IMG/VR virus record: IMGVR_UViG_3300045988_141393
Strand: one strand, 5' to 3'
DNA from: a virus
Lineage: Duplodnaviria; Heunggongvirae; Uroviricota; Caudoviricetes
DNA: 60,346 nt
The notes under the pieces were generated by a model. It was not told the origin of the DNA. It did no database searches and was given only the letters and a program-made list of their open reading frames with translations. Shown here piece after piece: positions 3,957-60,346 of this stretch (the stretch's first letter is position 1; the number at the start of each line of letters is the position of its first letter). The position numbers and the translations under genes are program-made.

Positions 3957-5354
3957 TTGGAGTGTATTTTGAACAAATCAGTTACTTCTGCGCTTTCCGA
4001 GGCCGCAGATATTAACAGCGTCATTGCTCTGGTTTCTTCATTAGAGAGGAAAGAAACACGCCTGGGGCGAAGTAGCTACGTAGTCACCAGCAAAGGTGCA
4101 GAGGTAAAGACGGCTTTTAAGGTCGTTGACGCCAGCAGTCTGATCATTTCGAACAACCTTGACGGTGCGATTAACCCGGCCTTCCCGGAAGAACTCCAAC
4201 CACGAGATCGTACCCGGCTATCCAGCAAACTCCAGGTTAACCGTATTGCCTCCAATTTACGCCCGGCACAATTAACGGATTCCGGTATGAGCAGCCACGG
4301 AGCGCCTATAGTTGGTCCGGACAACGTTGTTGAATCCGGCAACGGAAGGAGTATGGGTATCTGGCGTGCCTATGAGCAAGGACAGGCGGATGAGTATCGC
4401 CAGTACCTGATCGACCATGCGAAAGAGTTTGGTCTGAATCCTGACGAAATTTCGCAAATGTCTATGCCCGTACTGGTGCGAGAAAGACTCACAGATGTAG
4501 ACCGCGCTCAATTTGCCCGCGATTCAAACATTAGTGATCTGCAAGAGATGGCAGCAAGTGAAAAAGCGTATGCGGATGCGCAATTTCTCACTGAGAGCGT
4601 CATGGCGCTATTTAATCCTTCAGATGATGGAAATCTGCTGGCGCGGTCCAATGATGCGTTTATTCGTGCGTTTTTGCGCGAAATTGGCGATACAGCGATG
4701 GCAGGCTTGCTTACTGCCGATGGGCGTCCCACGAAACAGCTTATCGATCGCATCCAGAATGCAATTTTTGCCAAAGCGTACAAGGATGAAAGGCTTGTTC
4801 GGCTGGTGTCGGAAGAGCCAGATCCGGAAATGCGTAATATCCTGACCGCATTAAATACGGCAGCCAGCGATTTTGCGCAAATGCAGTCGCTGTCTGGCGA
4901 CGCTCACCATGACGCAGTAACAGGCTTAGTGGACGGTATAGAGCAGGTTAATGGCCTGGATACACAGGCGATAGCAGCACTCCAGGAAGCAATTAATCTT
5001 GTTCGTGAAGCCAAAGACAACGGTCAGGCCGTTGAAGAAGTGATCGCCCAAAGGGGGTTATTCGGCGACAGTACACCGGAAGCTGAGGCATTGGCGCTAT
5101 TCATCGTAGCAAATAATCGCAGTGCGAAGCGTATGGGGGCAGCATTCAAAAAAATGGCGCAAAAAATCAACGACGAGCTGACTCATAAACAACAGGCATT
5201 GGGCGATATGTTCGGCGGTGGCGATGTTGATCTGCGTCGTATTTTGTCTGCTGTATCTGATGAAATTGAGGGTGAATTTGGCGAAGGGAAAGGTCTGAAC
5301 TTTGCTATGTTTGAAAATTCTACAGATCTAAATAATTGCCGTACGGAAAACTAA
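3957..5354 (+). CDS. Hypothetical protein (465 aa; start may be TTG 3969)
   Basis: Long ORF, uniform coding character, GGAG upstream of 3969. Confidence 0.35.
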   Translation: MECILNKSVTSALSEAADINSVIALVSSLERKETRLGRSSYVVTSKGAEVKTAFKVVDASSLIISNNLDGAINPAFPEELQPRDRTRLSSKLQVNRIASNLRPAQLTDSGMSSHGAPIVGPDNVVESGNGRSMGIWRAYEQGQADEYRQYLIDHAKEFGLNPDEISQMSMPVLVRERLTDVDRAQFARDSNISDLQEMAASEKAYADAQFLTESVMALFNPSDDGNLLARSNDAFIRAFLREIGDTAMAGLLTADGRPTKQLIDRIQNAIFAKAYKDERLVRLVSEEPDPEMRNILTALNTAASDFAQMQSLSGDAHHDAVTGLVDGIEQVNGLDTQAIAALQEAINLVREAKDNGQAVEEVIAQRGLFGDSTPEAEALALFIVANNRSAKRMGAAFKKMAQKINDELTHKQQALGDMFGGGDVDLRRILSAVSDEIEGEFGEGKGLNFAMFENSTDLNNCRTEN

Positions 5355-5418: not shown

Positions 5419-7101
5419 ATGGCAACGAAAGACAAAAACAAAGGCTTTCTGTCAGCATTGAAGAAAGCCTTCAACGGTGGTGATGTTACGCCCGCCGATC
5501 CGGTCGTTTTTACGAGCGGGCATAGTGTCGTTGCTCGTTCCGGCCTGTCTGCTTTACGCCCAGGTATACTGGGGAGCAACAGCGATGGCATGACGAGTGC
5601 AGCAGATTCAATTTCTTTATCCTCTGAACTGCCCGGCGAGCGCCTGCAAAAGTACAACATCCTGGAAACGATGGCTAAAAGCCCGACTATCTCGACGGCT
5701 TTAAATATTCACATTGCACATGCGCTTGCGCCTTCAAAAAAAACCGGACAAGCATTCATCCTTTCGCCAAAGGATGGTTCCGATGCTGAGGCAGTAAGTA
5801 GATGTGAAGAGTTAACTGCTGATTTGGGGGCGATGATTAATGACGGACTTCCTTCATGGGCCATGATTATGGCGATCTTTGGGGTGTCTTATGTCCGCCC
5901 TTATGCTGAACAGGGCAGGGGGATAACAGGCATTGAGTCCAGTTATTACACTCTGCCACACTTCGTCCAGGAGTTTTATCGTGGTAGCCAGCTGGTAGGT
6001 TTCAGTGGTGATTACATCCTGGATACGCATAGTTTGCGCAGAGTAATAACCGAACCGTGGAATCTGGTTTCCATGAAAAATCCCTATTGGACGCCGCAGC
6101 ATAAAGTTATTCCGGTCAGCTACGGCACAAAAGGGTACTCACTGTTAAGTGAGCAGGCTGATAAGCCGTTAATGGAGACGCAGAATTACGGAACTTCATT
6201 CCTTGAATACAGCTATGAACCTTACCTGAATTTATGTGCTGCGCTCGCCGCGCTGAAATCAACGCGAAATAATGCAGCCAAAATTGACCGCCTGATTGCT
6301 CTTACGACGAACACACTGGACCCGGTTAATGCGGCGAACTATACGCGTGGCGTCAGCCAGGCATTGAAGCGACATAGTGACCTGGTGGCGCAAAGGTCGA
6401 TTAATGCCAACGCTATTCCGACGGTGCTTAACCACCTGATACCTGTTATGGGAGACGGGAAGAACGGTATCACTATTGATACGCAATCCATACCCGCAGA
6501 TATCAGTGGTATCGAAGACGTTATGTTTCACCTCCGGCAGCTTGCTGCAAGCCTAGGCATTGACGCAACAATGCTTGGCTGGGCTGATCAGATGAGTGGT
6601 GGACTTGGGGAAGGCGGTTGGCAGCAAACAGCTATCCAGGCCGCATTACGTGCGAACTGGATCAGACAGGCCGCGCAGCGAACTATTTATCGGCTTCATG
6701 ATATTCACCTCGCTTATAAATACGGGAAGGTTTACACCGAAAAAAACCGTCCTTATGACGTGCAATTCAACTCAATGAACACTGCTATCCAGGAAGAGGA
6801 AAACCGGGAACTGGATGCACGCGCCAACTTTGTTGCTGTCATCTCCCAAATTATGGACCAGATCCAGAACAACCCGAAACTGGCTGGTAGTGACGCGTTT
6901 ATGCGTTATCTGTTCACCGAGCAGTTGCACATCGACGATGACACTCTCAACACCATGATCAAAGAGTTTAAGGCGAATGAATCAGAGCAAAACAACGAGC
7001 ATGGTATGTACGAATCCGCGCCGTTGTCGTCCGGTGACGATCCGGAAAACTGGACGCCAGAACAGTTAATAAACTTTGCAAAATTTGTGATGAGCAATTA
7101 A
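5419..7101 (+). CDS. Hypothetical protein, possible portal (Prt-like position)
   Basis: 560 aa ORF after the Dar-like operon; portal assignment is by size and synteny with P1 only. Confidence 0.3.
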   Translation: MATKDKNKGFLSALKKAFNGGDVTPADPVVFTSGHSVVARSGLSALRPGILGSNSDGMTSAADSISLSSELPGERLQKYNILETMAKSPTISTALNIHIAHALAPSKKTGQAFILSPKDGSDAEAVSRCEELTADLGAMINDGLPSWAMIMAIFGVSYVRPYAEQGRGITGIESSYYTLPHFVQEFYRGSQLVGFSGDYILDTHSLRRVITEPWNLVSMKNPYWTPQHKVIPVSYGTKGYSLLSEQADKPLMETQNYGTSFLEYSYEPYLNLCAALAALKSTRNNAAKIDRLIALTTNTLDPVNAANYTRGVSQALKRHSDLVAQRSINANAIPTVLNHLIPVMGDGKNGITIDTQSIPADISGIEDVMFHLRQLAASLGIDATMLGWADQMSGGLGEGGWQQTAIQAALRANWIRQAAQRTIYRLHDIHLAYKYGKVYTEKNRPYDVQFNSMNTAIQEEENRELDARANFVAVISQIMDQIQNNPKLAGSDAFMRYLFTEQLHIDDDTLNTMIKEFKANESEQNNEHGMYESAPLSSGDDPENWTPEQLINFAKFVMSN

Positions 7102-9914: not shown

Positions 9915-10621
9915 TGGATATCTGCATTCTTGAAAAGCCATCAATGACCAGCATTGAGATCGCGGAGCTGGTGGGAAAACGTCATGACAATGTGAAGCGT
10001 ACCATTGAAACATTAGCCGAATCCGGCGTTATTGTTCGTCCTCAAATTGAGGATGAACCAAAAATAGATGTAATGGGGCGTTCTCGATTAATTCAGGTGT
10101 TCCGATTTAGCGACGAGCAAGGCAAACGAGACAGTATCATTGTCGTTGCGCAGCTCTCTCCGGAATTCACCGCCCGGCTGGTGGACCGCTGGCGCGAACT
10201 GGAAGAACAAGTACGCCAGCCGTTGACCGAAATAGAGATGATCGCCGCAATGGCTGCAAATGCAGTTCAGCAGCAAAAGCGGCTTCATGCTGTTGAGTCA
10301 AAGGTTAGCCAGGTCGCTGAAACCGTCGAGCAAATCAAGAAGGGCAATATGCCAGATGGTTACATTGGCTACCGCCAGCTGGCGGCGAAATGCGGCCTGA
10401 CTGAAGCCAAATGTCGCAACCTTGTCAACGCTTACCGGATTCCCACCGATACACATGAGTTTTTAACTCCAGAGGGGGTATTGTCGCGTCGTTCCATCGT
10501 GGCCTTATCTCCCTTCATGAATGCTTTTAACCGGATGATGTCGGAGGCTGAACACCGAGGAAAACGCTGGTATCACCCCAAAATGGGGCAATTCCAGGTG
10601 ATCGGTTGGGGAGGTGAGTGA
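9914..10621 (+). CDS. ant: Antirepressor (Ant / Rha-KilAC type), copy 1
   Basis: 235 aa; N-terminus MTSIEIAELVGKRHDNVKRTIETL; C-terminal block shared nearly verbatim with 47512..48453. Confidence 0.55.
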   Translation: MDICILEKPSMTSIEIAELVGKRHDNVKRTIETLAESGVIVRPQIEDEPKIDVMGRSRLIQVFRFSDEQGKRDSIIVVAQLSPEFTARLVDRWRELEEQVRQPLTEIEMIAAMAANAVQQQKRLHAVESKVSQVAETVEQIKKGNMPDGYIGYRQLAAKCGLTEAKCRNLVNAYRIPTDTHEFLTPEGVLSRRSIVALSPFMNAFNRMMSEAEHRGKRWYHPKMGQFQVIGWGGE

Positions 10622-23756: not shown

Positions 23757-23993
23757 ATGCAGAACAATCCGAACAAATGTCGAACGCTATGGGTGCGGTT
23801 ATATATTTATGTCGTCCTCTGTTTGATTGTGTCACTGGTTCTGTATGTTTGGCTTTTGCCAAATATGATCTCATCTGACAGCACAATACTTGTATTGTTG
23901 GGAGTCCTTCTCGCGCTCATTTACCCGGCTTTTGCAGTAGTCTTTTTTCGTGAAAAAACCAGGAAATTGATTAATGAAAAAAACGTTGATTAG
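23757..23993 (+). CDS. Small membrane protein
   Basis: 78 aa with two hydrophobic helices; overlaps start of downstream SPFH gene. Confidence 0.3.
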   Translation: MQNNPNKCRTLWVRLYIYVVLCLIVSLVLYVWLLPNMISSDSTILVLLGVLLALIYPAFAVVFFREKTRKLINEKNVD

Positions 23994-24801
23994 TGCAGCG
24001 ATTATTTTTGGTTCTTTATGTCTGACCGGATGCGATCGGGTAGAGCCAGGTAACGTAGGGATCAAAGTAAATAAGCTGGGGGATGATAAAGGTATCGGTG
24101 AAGTAGTTGGCGTTGGTCGCTACTGGACAGGCTTGAATACTGAAGTTTATATCTTCCCGACCTTTAAGCAAATGAAGACATACGATGAGCCGTTCAGCTT
24201 CCAGATGAGCGACGGAACAACCATTGGTTACCACATCGGCGTAGCCTACAAGGTTGATCCAGCAAAAGTCACAACGGTATTTCAGACCTATCGCAAAGGT
24301 GTAGATGATATTACTGATACCGATCTACGCCAGAAGGTTGCAGATGCTCTGAACCGGTTAGCCAGCAAAATGACCACCGACAAATTTATCGACGGTGGCA
24401 AATCTGAATTGCTTGATGCAGCCCTTAAAGACATTCAGGAAGAAATGACGCCCATCGGTATTCAGGTAATGAGCCTCTCATATGTGGGCAAGCCGGAGTA
24501 CCCGCCAACCGTTATCGACAGCATTAATGCCAAAGTCACGGCGAACCAGAAAACTCTGCAACGCGAGCAGGAAGTCAAGCAACGCGAAGCAGAAGCCAAC
24601 ATGCTGCGCGCAGAAGCTGCTGGACAGGCCGATGCCATTCGCACAAAAGCCCAAGCTGAAGCTGATGCCATTCGTTTACGCGGTGAGGCTCTGCGCCAGA
24701 ACCCCGGCGTTATGGAGTTGGAAGCGATCAACAAATGGAACGGAACGCTACCGCAGTATATGACCAGTAATACCGCTGTTCCGTTTGTTCCGGTGAAATA
24801 A
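23974..24801 (+). CDS. SPFH/band-7 domain lipoprotein
   Basis: 275 aa; signal peptide with lipobox LCLTGC; coiled-coil A/E/Q-rich C-terminus typical of prohibitin/HflC-like proteins. Confidence 0.5.
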   Translation: MKKTLISAAIIFGSLCLTGCDRVEPGNVGIKVNKLGDDKGIGEVVGVGRYWTGLNTEVYIFPTFKQMKTYDEPFSFQMSDGTTIGYHIGVAYKVDPAKVTTVFQTYRKGVDDITDTDLRQKVADALNRLASKMTTDKFIDGGKSELLDAALKDIQEEMTPIGIQVMSLSYVGKPEYPPTVIDSINAKVTANQKTLQREQEVKQREAEANMLRAEAAGQADAIRTKAQAEADAIRLRGEALRQNPGVMELEAINKWNGTLPQYMTSNTAVPFVPVK

Positions 24802-47512: not shown

Positions 47513-48453
47513 TGAATCTGTCCATCTCTCAAAAAGCGACAATGACCAGTATTGAGATCGCGGAACTGGTAGGAAGTCGCCCAGATAGTGTGAAGAGAAC
47601 TATCGAAACACTGGCTAAAAAGAGTGTGATCCAATTTCCACAATCTGTGGAAATTGAAAATAAACAATCAGTTGGCCCTCGTCGATTTTCCAAGGCTTAC
47701 ATCTTTGAAGGCGAACAAGGCAAGCGTGACAGTATCATTGTCGTCGCACAGCTTTCTCCCGAATTTACCGCCCGGCTGGTGGACCGCTGGCGCGAACTGG
47801 AGAATGCCCGGGTACAGTTAAAATCAAAAGCCGAAATTCTGGCTGAAATGGCGCAAATGCATCTTGAGCATGAACGCCGGATCAACGCCGTTAATGCCCA
47901 GGTAGCCGAAGTATCGGCACAAGTGTCCAAAGTCGCTGAAACCGTCGAGCAAATCAAGAAAGGCAATATGCCGGAAGGCTACATTGGCTACCGCCAGCTG
48001 GCGGCGAAATGTGGCCTGACTGAAGCCAAATGCCGCAACCTTGTCAACGCTTACCGGATTCCCACCGATACGCATGAGTTTTTAACTCCAGATGGTTTGC
48101 TTGCGAGACGCTCCATTGTGGCCCTGGCCCCCTTCCGGAAAGCCTTTAAGCAGGTGATGTCGGAGGCAGAACCACGCAATAAACGCTGGTATCATCCAAA
48201 GATGGGGATGTTTCAGGCAATCCACCATCCTGTGCCTGAAAGCCCAAAGGATAATCTGTCACTACATACCGTCAGAGAGAAGATCAGGACTGGATACGCA
48301 ACAGTGTGTCGTCGTTCTTCCTGGCCTGAAGGTATATGGGTGTGGCCCGAAGGTGGATCACGAAAGCACTGGCGCACTATCCGGGACGGGAAAATCCATG
48401 CTATTGATTTAGCGCCAGAGGATATTGTTGCTACGGACTGGATTGTTAGTTAA
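47512..48453 (+). CDS. ant: Antirepressor (Ant) fused to C-terminal DUF2829-like domain, copy 2
   Basis: 313 aa; Ant blocks shared with copy 1; residues from about 255 onward carry VCRRSSW ... DIVATDWIVS. Confidence 0.55.
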   Translation: MNLSISQKATMTSIEIAELVGSRPDSVKRTIETLAKKSVIQFPQSVEIENKQSVGPRRFSKAYIFEGEQGKRDSIIVVAQLSPEFTARLVDRWRELENARVQLKSKAEILAEMAQMHLEHERRINAVNAQVAEVSAQVSKVAETVEQIKKGNMPEGYIGYRQLAAKCGLTEAKCRNLVNAYRIPTDTHEFLTPDGLLARRSIVALAPFRKAFKQVMSEAEPRNKRWYHPKMGMFQAIHHPVPESPKDNLSLHTVREKIRTGYATVCRRSSWPEGIWVWPEGGSRKHWRTIRDGKIHAIDLAPEDIVATDWIVS

Positions 48454-50154: not shown

Positions 50155-50447
50155 TTCATTAACTCCATACCTTACCATCTTTGCCGCGAGCGCGGTCCCT
50201 AAAACCCTTAACTTCACTGCACCGTCCTTCATGCAATCAAAATGACTTTTATGTTATAAAAATAATCAGCCAAATCAACATGATTTAGGCCAAATTTCTG
50301 TCAAAAAATAAAATCCACAAAAAGTGGTTGACACTATTTTGGAAATCACAAACTGCACATAATCCATCGCGCTAACGGCTCCCGTTGAAGGTTCTTTTGA
50401 CGATTAACTTTCAGCCGAAGCGCGGTAGGGAGTCATAACGCCAAAGC

Positions 50448-50472
50448 AGGCCGCCATGTGCGGCCTTTTTTT
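50448..50472 (+). terminator. Rho-independent terminator (possible 3' end of a short non-coding transcript)
   Basis: AGGCCGC-catgt-GCGGCCT followed by TTTTTTT, 28 bp upstream of the 50500 gene start. Confidence 0.4.
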
Positions 50473-50499
50473 GTATCCGTCATCCGTGGAGGAAGGACA

Positions 50500-51153
50500 A
50501 TGGAAAAGATCGCAATATTCAGCCTGACCACCAGCAAGCCTCAAATGCTCACTGCAATACTGAAAGACGGTGCTCTCATTATTAACGAAGTAAAACCCCT
50601 TCCCGCGTCAGCATTGGAGCAAAAGCAAAAAATTCCTCCAGCTATAGCAGCCCTGCGGAAAAGCAAATTTAAGGTACTGGTAGACGAAATTACGCCAACG
50701 ATCTCCGCTGGCACCGGAGCAAGCCAGGTGACTCTCAAGACCCGTCATGCCGATGGCAGAGCAGCAATCATCGTCGGGATGGAAAGATACAGAGAGTTAA
50801 AACTCCAGAAGCTATTATCCCTGCCGCAAAATAACAAAGGTGCTTTCGAAATCCCCGACTCTATCGTTGATACCGAATACAACGGTAACGGAGAAGAAGT
50901 CTACAGGGTGAACTGGCAGGATATCAGGCCGGAACATATTCTGATGATCCTGTGTTGCTACGCTACCGTATACCACAACGTTGCCAGTGCGGATTACGTA
51001 GAGCAGATGACCGGTACAGTCGAGAAAGAGCAAAAAACAGGCATACTCACTTCGTTCCTTTCCATTATTGGGCATGAAAAAGTTGAAGCAGGCACCTCCC
51101 AGGCAAAGTCACTGGCTGGGAAAGAAGTTGATGAAGATACCGTGATACTTTGA
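50500..51153 (+). CDS. Hypothetical protein
   Basis: 217 aa from ATG 50500 with GGAGG RBS. Confidence 0.4.
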   Translation: MEKIAIFSLTTSKPQMLTAILKDGALIINEVKPLPASALEQKQKIPPAIAALRKSKFKVLVDEITPTISAGTGASQVTLKTRHADGRAAIIVGMERYRELKLQKLLSLPQNNKGAFEIPDSIVDTEYNGNGEEVYRVNWQDIRPEHILMILCCYATVYHNVASADYVEQMTGTVEKEQKTGILTSFLSIIGHEKVEAGTSQAKSLAGKEVDEDTVIL

Positions 51154-51489
51154 TCACATTAGTAGCTTTGTTAACTCCCTCAATACCAGGTAGAAGAGTA
51201 ACAAAAACACTGACGTGGACACCTGCTTAGTTAAAGAGGCACTAATGAATTTATTCAATAAATCAATCAGCTTATTAAAAGTATTCATCTTGTCGAATCC
51301 CTTCGATCTGTAGATAACAACCAGCTCACTATCGAGCTGGTCCATGCCTTAAGTTTAATGAAAGTCACTTGTTGACAATCAATAAATTCCAGAACAACGA
51401 ACTAACTCTGTTCATCCGAATAGTGCTTGCACTTTGCCCTCTCCGCGTGTACTGTGTATACACAGGATACAGGCACGGATGAAGTTATT

Positions 51490-51771
51490 TTGATTAAGTC
51501 ATTTCGCCATAAAGGGCTTGAACGATTTTTCAAGACAGGATCAACAGCAGGCATTCAAGCTAAACATGCGATTAAGCTACGCATTCAATTGACTGCTCTT
51601 AATGCAGCTAAACGCCCGGACGATATGTCTGCGCCGGGATGGGAATTGCACCCACTAAAGGGGGCAGACCTTAAAGGTCACTGGGCAATATCAGTAAACG
51701 GTAACTGGCGACTTACCTTCCGATTTGAAGGCGAAGACGCAATTCTTGTTGACTATCAGGATTATCATTGA
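51490..51771 (+). CDS. higB: HigB-type toxin (RelE/ParE superfamily killer protein)
   Basis: About 93 aa; [13 protein letters not shown] ... [40 protein letters not shown] matches killer-protein family; start uncertain (TTG 51490); palindrome CTGTGTATACACAG in leader. Confidence 0.65.
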
Positions 51772-51779
51772 GGAACACT

Positions 51780-52061
51780 ATGAGTCGTATGCATAATCCC
51801 GCGCATCCTGGCGCGGTTCTTCGTGAGTATCTGGGAGACATATCAGTCACAGATGCAGCTGCCGCATTAGGCATTACTCGCACGGCGCTTTCTCGGATTC
51901 TGAACGAGAAAGCAGGGATTTCTGCTGATATGGCGCTTCGTCTGGAATCTGCTCTGGGAACCAGTGCCGAGATGTGGACTGGTATGCAATCCCAGTATGA
52001 GCTTTGGGTCGCTTCACAAACCGCTCGCCCAAATATCCGCCCGTTATTTTTCCACGCTTAA
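51780..52061 (+). CDS. higA: HigA-type HTH antitoxin
   Basis: 93 aa; [10 protein letters not shown] ... [31 protein letters not shown] ... [12 protein letters not shown]. Confidence 0.65.
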
Positions 52062-52152
52062 TTTCACAGCGTCACCCGCCCTGGTGACGCTGCTTTCTCG
52101 CATTTCACATCCTCCATAAAGTTTCCCCAGGTTATGACTGAGGAGCTTTGTT

Positions 52153-52482
52153 ATGGGCTATAGCAGACTCGACGATAGGTACATTGAAGACGATATTTTT
52201 CGTGCACTGTTCCACCAGGAGATGATTAAACGGGTATCGGAATATCACCCGGATAATTTCCAGTACACGATAAAAATTGATGAAGTCTATCGTTCAGACC
52301 TGGCTGCCTACCGGGCGTATGGGAACGCCGATTTGCGCTGGGTATTCCGGGTGCTGGTGGGCCATGAGTCAGAAATGGAAGAAATGCCCGCCGGGACCAC
52401 GTTAACTCTTCCTGATGTGGCATGGCTGAGGAACAAGATCCGTGATTACGCGAGCGCGGAACCGGAGATAGAAAATGCCTGA
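52153..52482 (+). CDS. Hypothetical protein
   Basis: 109 aa ORF. Confidence 0.35.
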   Translation: MGYSRLDDRYIEDDIFRALFHQEMIKRVSEYHPDNFQYTIKIDEVYRSDLAAYRAYGNADLRWVFRVLVGHESEMEEMPAGTTLTLPDVAWLRNKIRDYASAEPEIENA

Positions 52483-53671
52483 TTTCCTGAAAAACCAGGA
52501 CGGGCGCTATATCACTGACGGCCTGTCCTCTAAGGACTTCACGCGTTTATTCGACCTTATCAGGAAAGAACAAACCCGTAAGCGCCGACAAGCTCACCGG
52601 ACGCTGACGCCAGGTAGACTGAGGAACAAATCCGCCGAAGATATTCTCAAGTTAGGGAAGAAAAAAGGCGGCACGTTCTTCACGCGAGACGACCTGAAAG
52701 GTTTCGAAAAGCTACGGAGTAAAACGCGCGAAAAATATGACAGTAAGACGGCAGGCATCACATACGCCCAGCTGGTGGCATCCAGCCAGGCTATCGATAT
52801 TAAGCGTGCAAATAACGCCGTGGATGACGGATCTGGTATCAAAAGAGCTACACCCGTATCTCTTCGCCACAATGTGATTAATATCCGCGTAGAAGCATCG
52901 GATATATCCGTCCACCAGCACCATATCGTCCGTATACGCTTTGAAGAATGGGATCAGATGGTCGATGACATCGCAGAAGACGATAAATCAGCTCTGAAAA
53001 TCACTAAATCACTGTGCGCCGGGCGGGTGTCTTTCGATTGTGACTGTGGTCGTCATCAATACTGGTATCGTTACATCGCTACTGCGGGTAACTTTGCCCT
53101 GGCCCCGCCAAAAGAATACGCCTATCCAAAAGTTCGTAACCCTAAGCTACAAGGCGTCGCCTGTAAACACGTGATCCACTCAATGACGCGGTTACAGTCC
53201 GCCAGTTGGCAAATGAGTATTGCTCGTGCGTTACAAAAGGCCGCAACGCAAATTGCATTTGGTGACGATCGCCGCCGTACAACTAAACACTTCTCAAAAG
53301 AAGACGAGAAGGAGTTTAATCGCAATCGTAGCAGTAAAACGAACGTTGAAGCCGCCAAACGCGAATGGAGGCTCTATCAGAAACGCCAGGCCGCTTTAAG
53401 CACAAAACTGGCAAAGGACAACGGGAAGATTGACAAGCTACGTGACCAGCTGACCAGGGCCAGAAAGTTGTCAGACGCACAGAAAAAACGGGCAGCAGCA
53501 AAAGAAGCAGCCTTGCAACGTGAGAAACAGAAAAACAAGGAGCTTCAGCAACGCCTTGCCGATCAATTCGCACTGAAGAAGCAAGCGTTCATTGATGCAC
53601 TGGTCATGGCAGGAACGTCACCTGAGCAAGCTGAAAAAATGTTTATGGAGTACGTGAAGAAAGGTTCTTGA
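52475..53671 (+). CDS. Hypothetical protein with SWIM-like zinc-finger motif
   Basis: 398 aa; CxC...CxH arrangement FDCDCGRHQYWY ... ACKHVIH; basic coiled-coil C-terminus. Confidence 0.4.
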   Translation: MPDFLKNQDGRYITDGLSSKDFTRLFDLIRKEQTRKRRQAHRTLTPGRLRNKSAEDILKLGKKKGGTFFTRDDLKGFEKLRSKTREKYDSKTAGITYAQLVASSQAIDIKRANNAVDDGSGIKRATPVSLRHNVINIRVEASDISVHQHHIVRIRFEEWDQMVDDIAEDDKSALKITKSLCAGRVSFDCDCGRHQYWYRYIATAGNFALAPPKEYAYPKVRNPKLQGVACKHVIHSMTRLQSASWQMSIARALQKAATQIAFGDDRRRTTKHFSKEDEKEFNRNRSSKTNVEAAKREWRLYQKRQAALSTKLAKDNGKIDKLRDQLTRARKLSDAQKKRAAAKEAALQREKQKNKELQQRLADQFALKKQAFIDALVMAGTSPEQAEKMFMEYVKKGS

Positions 53672-53705
53672 TTGACAACACAGGCGGTCATACAGACCGC
53701 CAAAC

Positions 53706-54065
53706 TCATACACCAACCAGGCTTTCAAGAGGAATGCCAAACTGGGAATGTAAACGACGAATCATAGGTAACGTTAAATTTCGTGTCCCATTTAGCACTT
53801 CGTAAACACGATTTGACTTACCAATCGCCGGTTCCAGATCCTTCACGGTCAGCCCTTGCTGTTCCATACGGAATTTAATGGCTTCAATAGGTGATGGTGG
53901 CTCAATTGGGTAATGCTTTTTCTCGTACTCTTCAATGAGCAGGCACATTACTTCAAAGAAATCGCCTTCCGGTGTGTTCATTTCCGGTTCGTTATCGAAC
54001 ATCGGTTCGACCGCACGCAGTGCGGCCTCATAATCTTGTTCTGTACGGATAGGTTTAATGTTCAT
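53706..54065 (-). CDS. higA: HigA-type antitoxin (second, unrelated module)
   Basis: 119 aa; ... QGLTVKDLEPAIGKSNRVYEVLNGTRNLTLPMIRRLHSQFGIPLESL typical of HigA C-terminal HTH. Confidence 0.6.
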   Translation of the reverse strand: MNIKPIRTEQDYEAALRAVEPMFDNEPEMNTPEGDFFEVMCLLIEEYEKKHYPIEPPSPIEAIKFRMEQQGLTVKDLEPAIGKSNRVYEVLNGTRNLTLPMIRRLHSQFGIPLESLVGV

Positions 54066-54068
54066 GAT

Positions 54069-54371
54069 TTACTCCAGTTCTATTGTATCAGCTTCAATGG
54101 CATCGTATTCCTTATGTGTTCCAATAAACTTAACGAACATCCATCCTCGCTGATAAGCAATTGCGACAATTAACCTGTAATCATTTCCCTTAATATTGAA
54201 CACCACGCGCCTGTTTTTAAGGATGCTGGCTGTCCGGTACTGTTCTTTGATCTCAGCCGGATTTTTCCAGTCAGCCTTTGTTGCTTCATCAACCCATGCC
54301 TTTAATGGCTGTTCTGCATCGGGATTCTTCGCCCAGAAATCCCTTAGTGTTTTTACCGAAATTATTTTCAT
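54069..54371 (-). CDS. higB: HigB-type toxin (second module)
   Basis: About 100 aa from ATG 54371; MKIISVKTLRDFWAKNP ... FIGTHKEYD resembles HigB toxin family; encoded upstream of its antitoxin. Confidence 0.6.
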   Translation of the reverse strand: MKIISVKTLRDFWAKNPDAEQPLKAWVDEATKADWKNPAEIKEQYRTASILKNRRVVFNIKGNDYRLIVAIAYQRGWMFVKFIGTHKEYDAIEADTIELE

Positions 54372-54516
54372 CACAGATTCCTTCTCGCTGAAAGTATAGT
54401 AGTCCCAATATGGGACAATGTAAAGCACTTTAGTCCCATGTTGGGATATGAATTGAAATCACAATCTCCAGACAATGCACCCTCGATACCTGATAAATCG
54501 ACCTTTGAGGATGCTT

Positions 54517-55308
54517 ATGGGCCGTTTTGACGAATGGTTTGCTGACGATGCAAACCTGGCAAGTAAGGAGTCAGAACATGACAGCACGCAGAGAGAAACG
54601 CCAGCGACGGTTGAAGCGGATGCAGGAAGCGCGCCGGAACATGGCAATGCCGGACCGGATTCATTCAGCATTCTGGAAGAGCAATCCACCGCCGAAGCTG
54701 ATAGCCATGATAATTTTGCTGATAGCAACGGTGGCCTTACTCCGGACGCTGGCGAATCAGATATAGCCATACTTCCACCTTCCCTGGCTGGCAGAGAACC
54801 GACTCCACAGTTAAAAGCACGCTATAACGGGCATAAAGCCTTTAATGACCAAATCCGCGCAGACTGGATGCTGATTATTGAATCCAGCCCAGACGCGTTT
54901 CAGGCTCTCTTATATCGACCAGATGTTGGCACATATGGGGTAGTCAGCGACGAAACAGGAGAAGAGTCATTCACTGAACTGGATAACAACCAACGCGAAC
55001 TGACTTACCAGGAACCTGAAATCGTTTATGTGCTGGATAACCCTGACGGGCGTGACTCTTTCCATGCGATTGACGCAGACGGTGAGCAGGATGGCTTAAC
55101 CGATGATGTTCTGATTCTGCGTATTGCAGCAAATAACGTCCCCGTCGGCTCAATTCTTGAATGGAATGAAGAGATGGTAAACGGCGTAGCCCGCCGCTGG
55201 TGGTACGTGCACCGTATTTTTAGCTACGGCACACAGCATGTTGGTTCGCTTTACTACTGCATACCTGCCAGGAATTTTGATACGACTCAAAACGGAGTGA
55301 TCGAATGA
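54517..55308 (+). CDS. Acidic hypothetical protein
   Basis: 263 aa from ATG 54517 with GAGGA RBS. Confidence 0.35.
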   Translation: MGRFDEWFADDANLASKESEHDSTQRETPATVEADAGSAPEHGNAGPDSFSILEEQSTAEADSHDNFADSNGGLTPDAGESDIAILPPSLAGREPTPQLKARYNGHKAFNDQIRADWMLIIESSPDAFQALLYRPDVGTYGVVSDETGEESFTELDNNQRELTYQEPEIVYVLDNPDGRDSFHAIDADGEQDGLTDDVLILRIAANNVPVGSILEWNEEMVNGVARRWWYVHRIFSYGTQHVGSLYYCIPARNFDTTQNGVIE

Positions 55309-60265: not shown

Positions 60266-60346
60266 TGTGGCGAAATACCTATTAACCTAACTTCGCCCAG
60301 GTATCACGCAGCCCAACGGTGCGGTTAAATACCGGTTTTTCCGCCG

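Follow-up and report, generated by a model that had tools for sequence, protein, structure and literature searches.

What do two toxin-antitoxin pairs of the HigB/HigA type contribute to a virus that carries them within 3 kb of each other? This question is raised by the 60,346-nucleotide sequence IMGVR_UViG_3300045988_141393 of a tailed phage of the Caudoviricetes, of which the whole stretch that was analysed is referred to here as the window. The best explanation is that the two pairs represent independent and intact type II HigBA operons, which probably stabilise a plasmid prophage by post-segregational killing. Both should be regarded as ordinary cargo of an already known kind, identical or near-identical proteins being annotated as HigB and HigA in RefSeq.

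The element itself is a D6-like phage-plasmid, which is related to P1 but is not P1, and D6 is the sole phage with nucleotide similarity to the window. The D6-like phage-plasmids constitute subgroup 2 of the P1 group (PMC10879196). The closest records are non-mobilisable plasmids of about 90 kb from Escherichia, Salmonella, and Shigella, which belong to replicon cluster 1704 and code for ParM/ParR. The window comprises 60 of the approximately 91 kb of the element, with the other 30 kb or so lying outside the view of this analysis. Identity of the window with its nearest relative, plasmid CP099081.1, was considered and rejected, as the two are 94-98% identical in a mosaic fashion; the RefSeq/PGAP annotation of CP099081.1, which was elsewhere rated as 99% identical, contains all four hig genes as they are described here. 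In the surroundings of the two cassettes lie D6 counterparts of the P1 genes mat, 26, 25, 7, 24, 6, and 5, and the cassettes flank the baseplate/tail genes 26 and 25, where they occupy accessory slots between mat and 26 (mat|26) and between 25 and 7 (25|7), respectively.

Two HigBA operons from different families

A preliminary description, made from the sequence of the window alone, had proposed two unrelated pairs: one on the plus strand at 51490..52061, consisting of a RelE/ParE-type toxin and a helix-turn-helix (HTH) antitoxin, and one from a different HigB/HigA family on the minus strand at 54069..54371 and 53706..54065, both in toxin-first order. The coordinates, the families, and the gene order are all borne out by our analysis. 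The search against toxin-antitoxin family profiles, which had been suggested as a check, assigned the plus-strand pair (pair 1) to PF05015 and TIGR02607 and the toxin of the minus-strand pair (pair 2) to PF09907.

The toxin gene of pair 1, higB1 (51490..51771, plus strand), codes for an Rts1-type HigB of 93 amino acids and starts with TTG, at a position where more distant homologues have an ATG. HigB1 matches PF05015 over the complete profile (positions 1-91 of 91; 76.4 bits at a cut-off of 27; E=2.4e-21) and shares 42% identity with HigB of Rts1 (PDB 4MCT_B, E=2e-22). In the alignment of the two proteins, residues His54, Lys57, Arg74, Asp91, Tyr92, and His93 of HigB1 correspond to His54, Lys57, Arg73, Asp90, Tyr91, and His92 of Rts1 HigB, among which His54, Asp90, Tyr91, and His92 have been shown to be critical (PMC5027501). 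The adjoining higA1 (51780..52061, plus strand) encodes a predicted antitoxin and repressor, also of 93 amino acids, with a single HTH_3 domain (PF01381); it scores 98.4 bits against the TIGR02607 equivalog (cut-off 47.7) and matches HigA/GraA-type antitoxins in PDB with E-values from 1e-13 to 1e-8. For higA1, the ATG at 51780 is the best start, in preference to the TTG at 51768, and is preceded by a GAGGAA motif overlapping the higB1 stop codon. The motif is included in the gap of 8 nt between the two genes, which form one operon with the toxin gene upstream. A stem-loop directly 3' of higA1 (52067..52092, plus strand), composed of CAGCGTCACC/GGTGACGCUG and followed by CUUUCUCGC, folds with -18.7 kcal/mol (z = -5.7) and is likely to serve as a partial terminator at the edge of the cassette.

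Among the characterised systems, pair 1 resembles HigBA of Rts1 from Proteus vulgaris (PDB 4MCT/4MCX) in the toxin-first order, a toxin of 92-93 amino acids that aligns over its full length, the catalytic residues, a short HigA with a single HTH, and the location on a plasmid. Its candidate operator, a dyad over the putative -10 element, would be a further resemblance. Pair 1 differs in the TTG start codon and in being located on a phage-plasmid replicon, and HigA1 matches Rts1 HigA less well (E=1.5e-8) than it does the GraA/HigA antitoxin of Pseudomonas (6F8S_A, E=3e-13).

Pair 2 consists of higB2 (54069..54371, minus strand), coding for a K-12-type HigB toxin of 100 amino acids, and higA2 (53706..54065, minus strand), coding for a K-12-type HigA antitoxin of 119 amino acids, with a gap of 3 nt between the higB2 stop codon and the ATG of higA2. 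HigB2 covers the complete PF09907 profile (positions 1-74 of 74; 117.4 bits at a cut-off of 27; E=3.3e-34) and matches HigB of E. coli K-12 (PDB 5IFG_A/5YCL_B) with E=1e-7, the FN..GN and THKEYD motifs being invariant between the two proteins. In HigA2, the toxin-binding part is N-terminal and the HTH_3 domain (PF01381, residues 63-115) C-terminal, and the protein is aligned with K-12 HigA (5IFG_B/5YCL_A) over residues 6-112 with E=2e-8. Pair 2 shares with K-12 HigBA (YgjN-YgjM; 5IFG, 5YCL) the toxin-first order, the PF09907 toxin with both motifs, the antitoxin with a C-terminal HTH, and the presence of two operators, which are predicted in the case of pair 2. The differences concern the toxin identity of only about 28%, the length of the antitoxin (119 amino acids in HigA2 vs. 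138), and the location, which is on plasmids or phage-plasmids instead of the chromosome. Between higA2 and the convergent gene 25, a GC-rich hairpin at 53683..53701 (-14.3 kcal/mol on the plus strand and -15.4 kcal/mol on the minus strand, with z = -5.4 and -3.8, respectively) represents a candidate for a bidirectional terminator. Stx-converting lambdoid phages also contain genes similar to higB2 (42% identity) in their immunity regions, mostly without annotation, as in AF034975.3 (H-19B; 4142-4438) and NC_049923.1 (6059-6355).

BLASTP comparisons of toxin with toxin and of antitoxin with antitoxin between the two pairs yielded zero alignments. At the level of sequence, it is thus correct to call the pairs unrelated. 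As judged from their characterised relatives, HigB1 and HigB2 would both act as ribosome-dependent mRNA endonucleases. All four genes are under strong purifying selection and are maintained as working genes, as shown by dN/dS values (ratios of nonsynonymous to synonymous substitution rates) of 0.03-0.11 over the four genes (about 0.05-0.07 for higB1, 0.05-0.11 for higA1, and 0.03-0.07 for higB2), which were obtained with homologues from other replicons whose synonymous sites are near or at saturation.

Promoters and candidate operators

A putative weak sigma-70 promoter of higBA1 was read from the sequence at 51427..51455 (plus strand), consisting of TTGCAC (51427-32) and TACTGT (51450-55) at a distance of 17 nt. 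The bases TA.TGT of the -10 hexamer are invariant among the homologues, and TTGCA(C/T) is kept in those from Escherichia. Overlapping with the putative -10 element, a dyad at 51447..51470 with the extended arms GTGTACTGTGTA/TACACAGGATAC and the perfect core CTGTGTATACACAG (51452-51465) is a candidate operator for HigA1. The preliminary description had already recorded a perfect 14-bp palindrome as a likely autoregulatory operator, but at about 51442..51455; the palindrome indeed exists, although its position had to be corrected by 10 nt downstream, and the proposed function is plausible, with the position of the dyad being conserved in diverged homologues. The palindrome CTGTGTATACACAG occurs only once in the window. 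Taken by itself, a palindrome of 14 bp is statistically unremarkable window-wide, as the count of perfect palindromes with a length of 14 bp or more was 8 vs. 4.2 expected from dinucleotide shuffles. What lends weight to this one is its location, 25 nt upstream of higB1, together with a dyad that distant homologues have conserved. This conservation was recognised in homologues whose coding DNA is about 70-74% identical to pair 1: a Salmonella megaplasmid contains the dyad GTATAGTGTTTA/TATACACTATAC and an Arsenophonus plasmid the dyad TTGTATACTGTATA/TATACAGTACGCAA at the same place, in both cases with a changed sequence but retained symmetry. The respective region of a Pantoea homologue is also alignable but retains the symmetry only in part, and the repeat scan found no dyad there. 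A changed sequence with kept symmetry is what one would expect to see in an operator, and plausibly parallels operator O2 of the Rts1 hig locus, where HigA represses via two dyad operators overlapping with the -35 (O1) and -10 (O2) elements (PMC12266136). Pair 1 exhibits one clear dyad, whereas the vicinity of its -35 element contains only a weak and non-conserved 5+2+5 repeat, AGTGCttGCACT.

The promoter of higBA2 (54396..54424, minus strand) was called by a consensus scan with 9 of 12 matching positions; it consists of TTTACA (54424-54419) and TACTAT (54401-54396), separated by 17 nt, and is conserved in the homologues. Two candidate operators for HigA2, which were not noticed in the preliminary description, bracket the -35 element: a proximal one, GTCCCAATATGGGAC, lies between -35 and -10 (54402..54416), and a distal one, GTCCCATGTTGGGA, just upstream of -35 (54433..54446). 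The two dyads are 31 bp apart and are part of a 25-nt direct repeat. Their motif, TCCCAnnnnGGGA, which we infer here from the sequence, has only these two sites in the 60 kb of the window, compared to 0.38 expected, and none of 100 shuffles reached that count. Both sites are conserved in homologues from IncF and IncX4 plasmids and from Pantoea, in which the coding DNA is only about 74% identical.

Accessory slots and the distribution of their cargo

The first slot (mat|26), which holds the pair-1 cassette, extends over 51372..52095 (plus strand) in a comparison with D6 and CP149812. The shared backbone stops at ...AAAGTCACTTGT and restarts at TTTCTCGCATTTCACA, with the megablast alignment to D6 beginning at 52090, and D6 and many relatives contain a hairpin of about 55 bp at this place instead of pair 1. 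The second slot (25|7) with the pair-2 cassette was delimited to 53672..54455 (minus strand) by aligning five relatives that differ in their cargo; the backbone restarts there at AAATCACAATCTCC. Other cargo found in the 25|7 slot includes a D6-type higBA, an extra gene for a protein of 244 amino acids, an AlpA-like regulator, and a 'stationary phase growth adaptation protein'. The contents of the two slots assort independently among the relatives; both places are prone to recombination, and plasmids that are alike in other respects differ in what they hold there. A run of GCAAGT hexamer repeats was observed beside the AlpA-like gene in the 25|7 slot of CP122510.1 (around 6330-6400).

The 'D6 addiction module' (orf70/orf71, MF356679.1) is located in the same 25|7 slot and the same orientation as pair 2, and its toxin belongs to PF05015, as does that of pair 1. 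It is nevertheless a different cassette, since its proteins share only 33% identity with HigB1 and 30% with HigA1, and it shows no relationship to pair 2. Neither pair 1 nor higB2 is present in D6, which contains only an orphan higA2 of full length (orf72; 6404-6763), positioned downstream of the terminator that follows the phage's own higBA. In PLSDB, about 84 plasmids retain just a 198-bp remnant from the 5' end of higA2 beside a D6-type higBA (e.g., CP022228.3, 1801-1998). This graded decay of higA2 suggests that the D6-type higBA displaced a module of the pair-2 type in the 25|7 slot.

The distribution of the modules was assessed among the approximately 133 PLSDB records which contain the 26/25 backbone. 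A D6-type higBA occupies the 25|7 slot in 91 of these, and some kind of HigBA is present there in about 109 (the 91 of D6 type plus about 18 with pair 2). The higB2 gene was found in 21 PLSDB records, 18 of them D6-like (at least 97.8% identity) and 3 from other P1-like plasmids (85%), in which the pair is located near c1. Pair 1 is present in 17 PLSDB phage-plasmids and additionally on seven plasmids of 215-242 kb (87% identity), where it is surrounded by insertion sequence (IS) debris. Both pairs occur together in only three PLSDB records (CP099081.1, OY754373.1, and CP137859.1). Of 5,426 complete genomes of E. coli, 34 contain pair 1 and 19 contain higB2, exclusively on plasmids and never on the chromosome. 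In a phage collection, neither toxin has a close relative, with identities of 42-45% at best. Pair 2 is thus a minority alternative to the D6-type higBA, and pair 1 a rarer extra module that also occurs on large non-phage plasmids.

Some further sequence features were observed in and around the slots. The element TCACAnnCTCCA is found at the right edges of both slots (52105-52116 and 54459-54470), just upstream of genes 26 and 7, and further copies are located at 50346, 11378 (minus strand), 11419, and 59089. When up to one mismatch is allowed, there are 9 copies vs. 3.45 expected (0 of 100 shuffles). Several of them lie upstream of co-oriented genes including mat. The element may act in late promoters of the D6 type, and this would account for the variation in cargo ending there. 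Another candidate, the 9-bp inverted repeat AAGTCACTT at the left edge of the first slot (51362), was considered as a P1-type Lpa late-promoter box and rejected, as its two copies in the window correspond to chance and the one-mismatch copies are without pattern. A small hydrophobic open reading frame (ORF) of 44-63 codons at 51154-51345 (minus strand), ending in ...FLLLFYLVLRELTKLLM and convergent with mat, corresponds to D6 orf77; every D6-like plasmid that was examined has conserved it, and it has no family match. An Rfam scan of 50400-55000 detected no RNA family at E<=1. Elsewhere in the window, the perfect 14-bp palindrome CCGCCAGCTGGCGG occurs twice (10372-10385 and 47991-48004); the annotation of the nearest relative contains Icd-like genes in areas that match these copies only roughly. 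The same plasmid carries the gene for a glutaminyl-tRNA synthetase (glnS; CP099081.1, 74914-76575), the end of which falls at the edge of the window (about 60282-60346). The presence of plasmid-borne glnS in D6-like prophages has been remarked before (PMC6799933).

Addiction, defence, or selfish cargo

HigBA of Rts1 and of E. coli K-12 serve as the models from which the activities of the two pairs are predicted, namely toxicity and its neutralisation, binding to DNA, and stabilisation of the plasmid. By this analogy, each HigA would bind and neutralise its own toxin, and a HigA dimer would repress its own promoter via the dyads, from one site over the -10 element in pair 1 and from two sites bracketing the -35 element in pair 2. 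If a daughter cell lost the low-copy prophage plasmid, the labile antitoxins would decay and the toxins would arrest or kill the cell, and this post-segregational killing would stabilise the prophage in the population. Given the lack of sequence similarity between the pairs, cross-neutralisation is not expected, and their effects would add up. Post-segregational killing by Rts1 higBA has been demonstrated in single-cell and curing assays (PMC10899753), and higBA has already been named as the addiction system of the D6 lineage, some members of which also carry phd-doc (PMC6799933).

The phd-doc module of P1 shares the presumed role of addicting cells to a low-copy plasmid prophage, but consists of unrelated proteins and is arranged in antitoxin-first order. 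Doc is a Fic-fold kinase of EF-Tu. The preliminary description had regarded the HigBA pairs as replacements of phd/doc or additions to it. This view fits insofar as phd/doc is undetectable by tblastn in the window and in the nearest complete relative, CP099081.1, the best E-value being 0.47, and D6 does not contain phd/doc in the P1-equivalent position either. HigBA is, however, the usual and previously described addiction cargo of the D6 lineage (PMC6799933) and not a special replacement. The place corresponding to phd-doc of P1, upstream of lpa-pacAB (23757-24801), is occupied in the window by an ORF of 78 codons with hydrophobic stretches and another one of 275 codons; D6 contains tRNA genes and tciA/B there.

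Several points weigh against the interpretation as addiction modules. The support for these exact proteins is at the level of sequence, with toxicity, neutralisation, DNA binding, and plasmid stabilisation all deduced from relatives. The window represents only 60 of about 91 kb, and other addiction or partition systems of the element could render both modules redundant; ParM/ParR is indeed present in the nearest relative. The promoter hexamers of pair 1 are weak and match the consensus at 6 of 12 positions, which is why the consensus scan made no call and the promoter was deduced by reading, and there is one clear dyad in the leader vs. two in Rts1. Finally, close relatives of HigA2 are also found on chromosome-sized contigs from other Enterobacterales, showing that the family is not plasmid-specific.

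One or both cassettes might instead mainly guard the lysogen from superinfecting phages by abortive infection (Abi): an infection that stops host transcription or degrades HigA would set HigB free to cut mRNAs on the ribosome, and the infection would be aborted. We regard this as unlikely, even though it is backed by strong PADLOC matches of HigB2 to PD-Lambda-2_A (PDLC03979, E=1e-41) and of HigA2 to PD-Lambda-2_B (E=7e-43), the latter confined to positions 1-119 of 402 and thus to the N-terminal HTH part. PD-lambda-2 is an experimentally validated Abi-type defence system against lambda-vir (PMC9519451), the cassettes reside in moron-like prophage slots, where defence cargo is common, and the HigB2-like genes of Stx phages and H-19B lie in immunity regions. 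However, part B of PD-lambda-2 contains an ImmA/IrrE peptidase domain and part C is required for defence, and the system works in reverse of a canonical HigBA, with B being toxic and A rescuing (PMC9519451). Pair 2 is not a member of PD-lambda-2, because it has no peptidase domain (119 amino acids in HigA2 vs. about 400 in B) and no part C. HigA2 stops at residue 119 and is followed by the terminator and the convergent gene 25, with the slot ending at 53672 without a third gene. The 120 best homologues of HigA2 in a search of 5.8 billion proteins are all stand-alone proteins of 113-134 amino acids; a truncation of a fused long protein was rejected on these grounds, and the two-gene form therefore appears to be the norm. 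The orf73-like gene for a 244-residue protein that follows higA2 in D6, OY754373, and CP137859, which is not present in the window, was likewise rejected as the missing peptidase half of B, since it shows no match to a peptidase or PD-lambda-2 in Pfam or PADLOC and only weak coiled-coil-like matches. Pair 1 has no PADLOC hit at all, and the strictly plasmid-borne occurrence of both pairs in E. coli also speaks against a primary role in defence.

Very improbable, in our estimate, is that the cassettes are purely selfish or competitive cargo, which is hard to lose and acts in plasmid-plasmid competition or as anti-addiction among co-infecting D6-like elements, with no benefit to the prophage or the host. 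The independent assortment of the slots and the turnover of the 25|7 contents would agree with such a role, as would the orphan higA2 or its 198-bp remnant beside a D6-type higBA in many relatives, which is the expected leftover of a module replacement, and the occurrence of pair 1 amid IS debris on plasmids of 130-240 kb. The orphan higA2 of D6, however, is situated behind a terminator and has no obvious ribosome-binding site, and most copies are truncated, which looks like decay rather than the retention of a gene for anti-addiction. The strong purifying selection seen on the toxins is equally expected under addiction, and a selfish character overlaps with the stabilisation of the prophage by post-segregational killing without excluding it. 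Combining parts of these proposals, the slots flanking genes 26-25 might be dedicated exchange sites ending at TCACAnnCTCCA, at which HigBA modules are swapped repeatedly, with pair 2 serving as a minimal two-gene relative of PD-lambda-2 for superinfection exclusion by Abi and orphan higA2 conferring immunity to competing D6-like plasmids. This scenario is distinctly doubtful; if true, the locus would be the site of a toxin-antitoxin arms race and not of simple addiction cargo.

With stabilisation of the prophage by two HigBA modules as the probable function, the analysis shows which addiction modules this D6-like prophage carries, and matters little beyond their correct annotation. The data may be useful for typing D6-like phage-plasmids, for predicting how difficult they are to cure, and for choosing cassettes to be employed in toxin-antitoxin or phage-defence assays.

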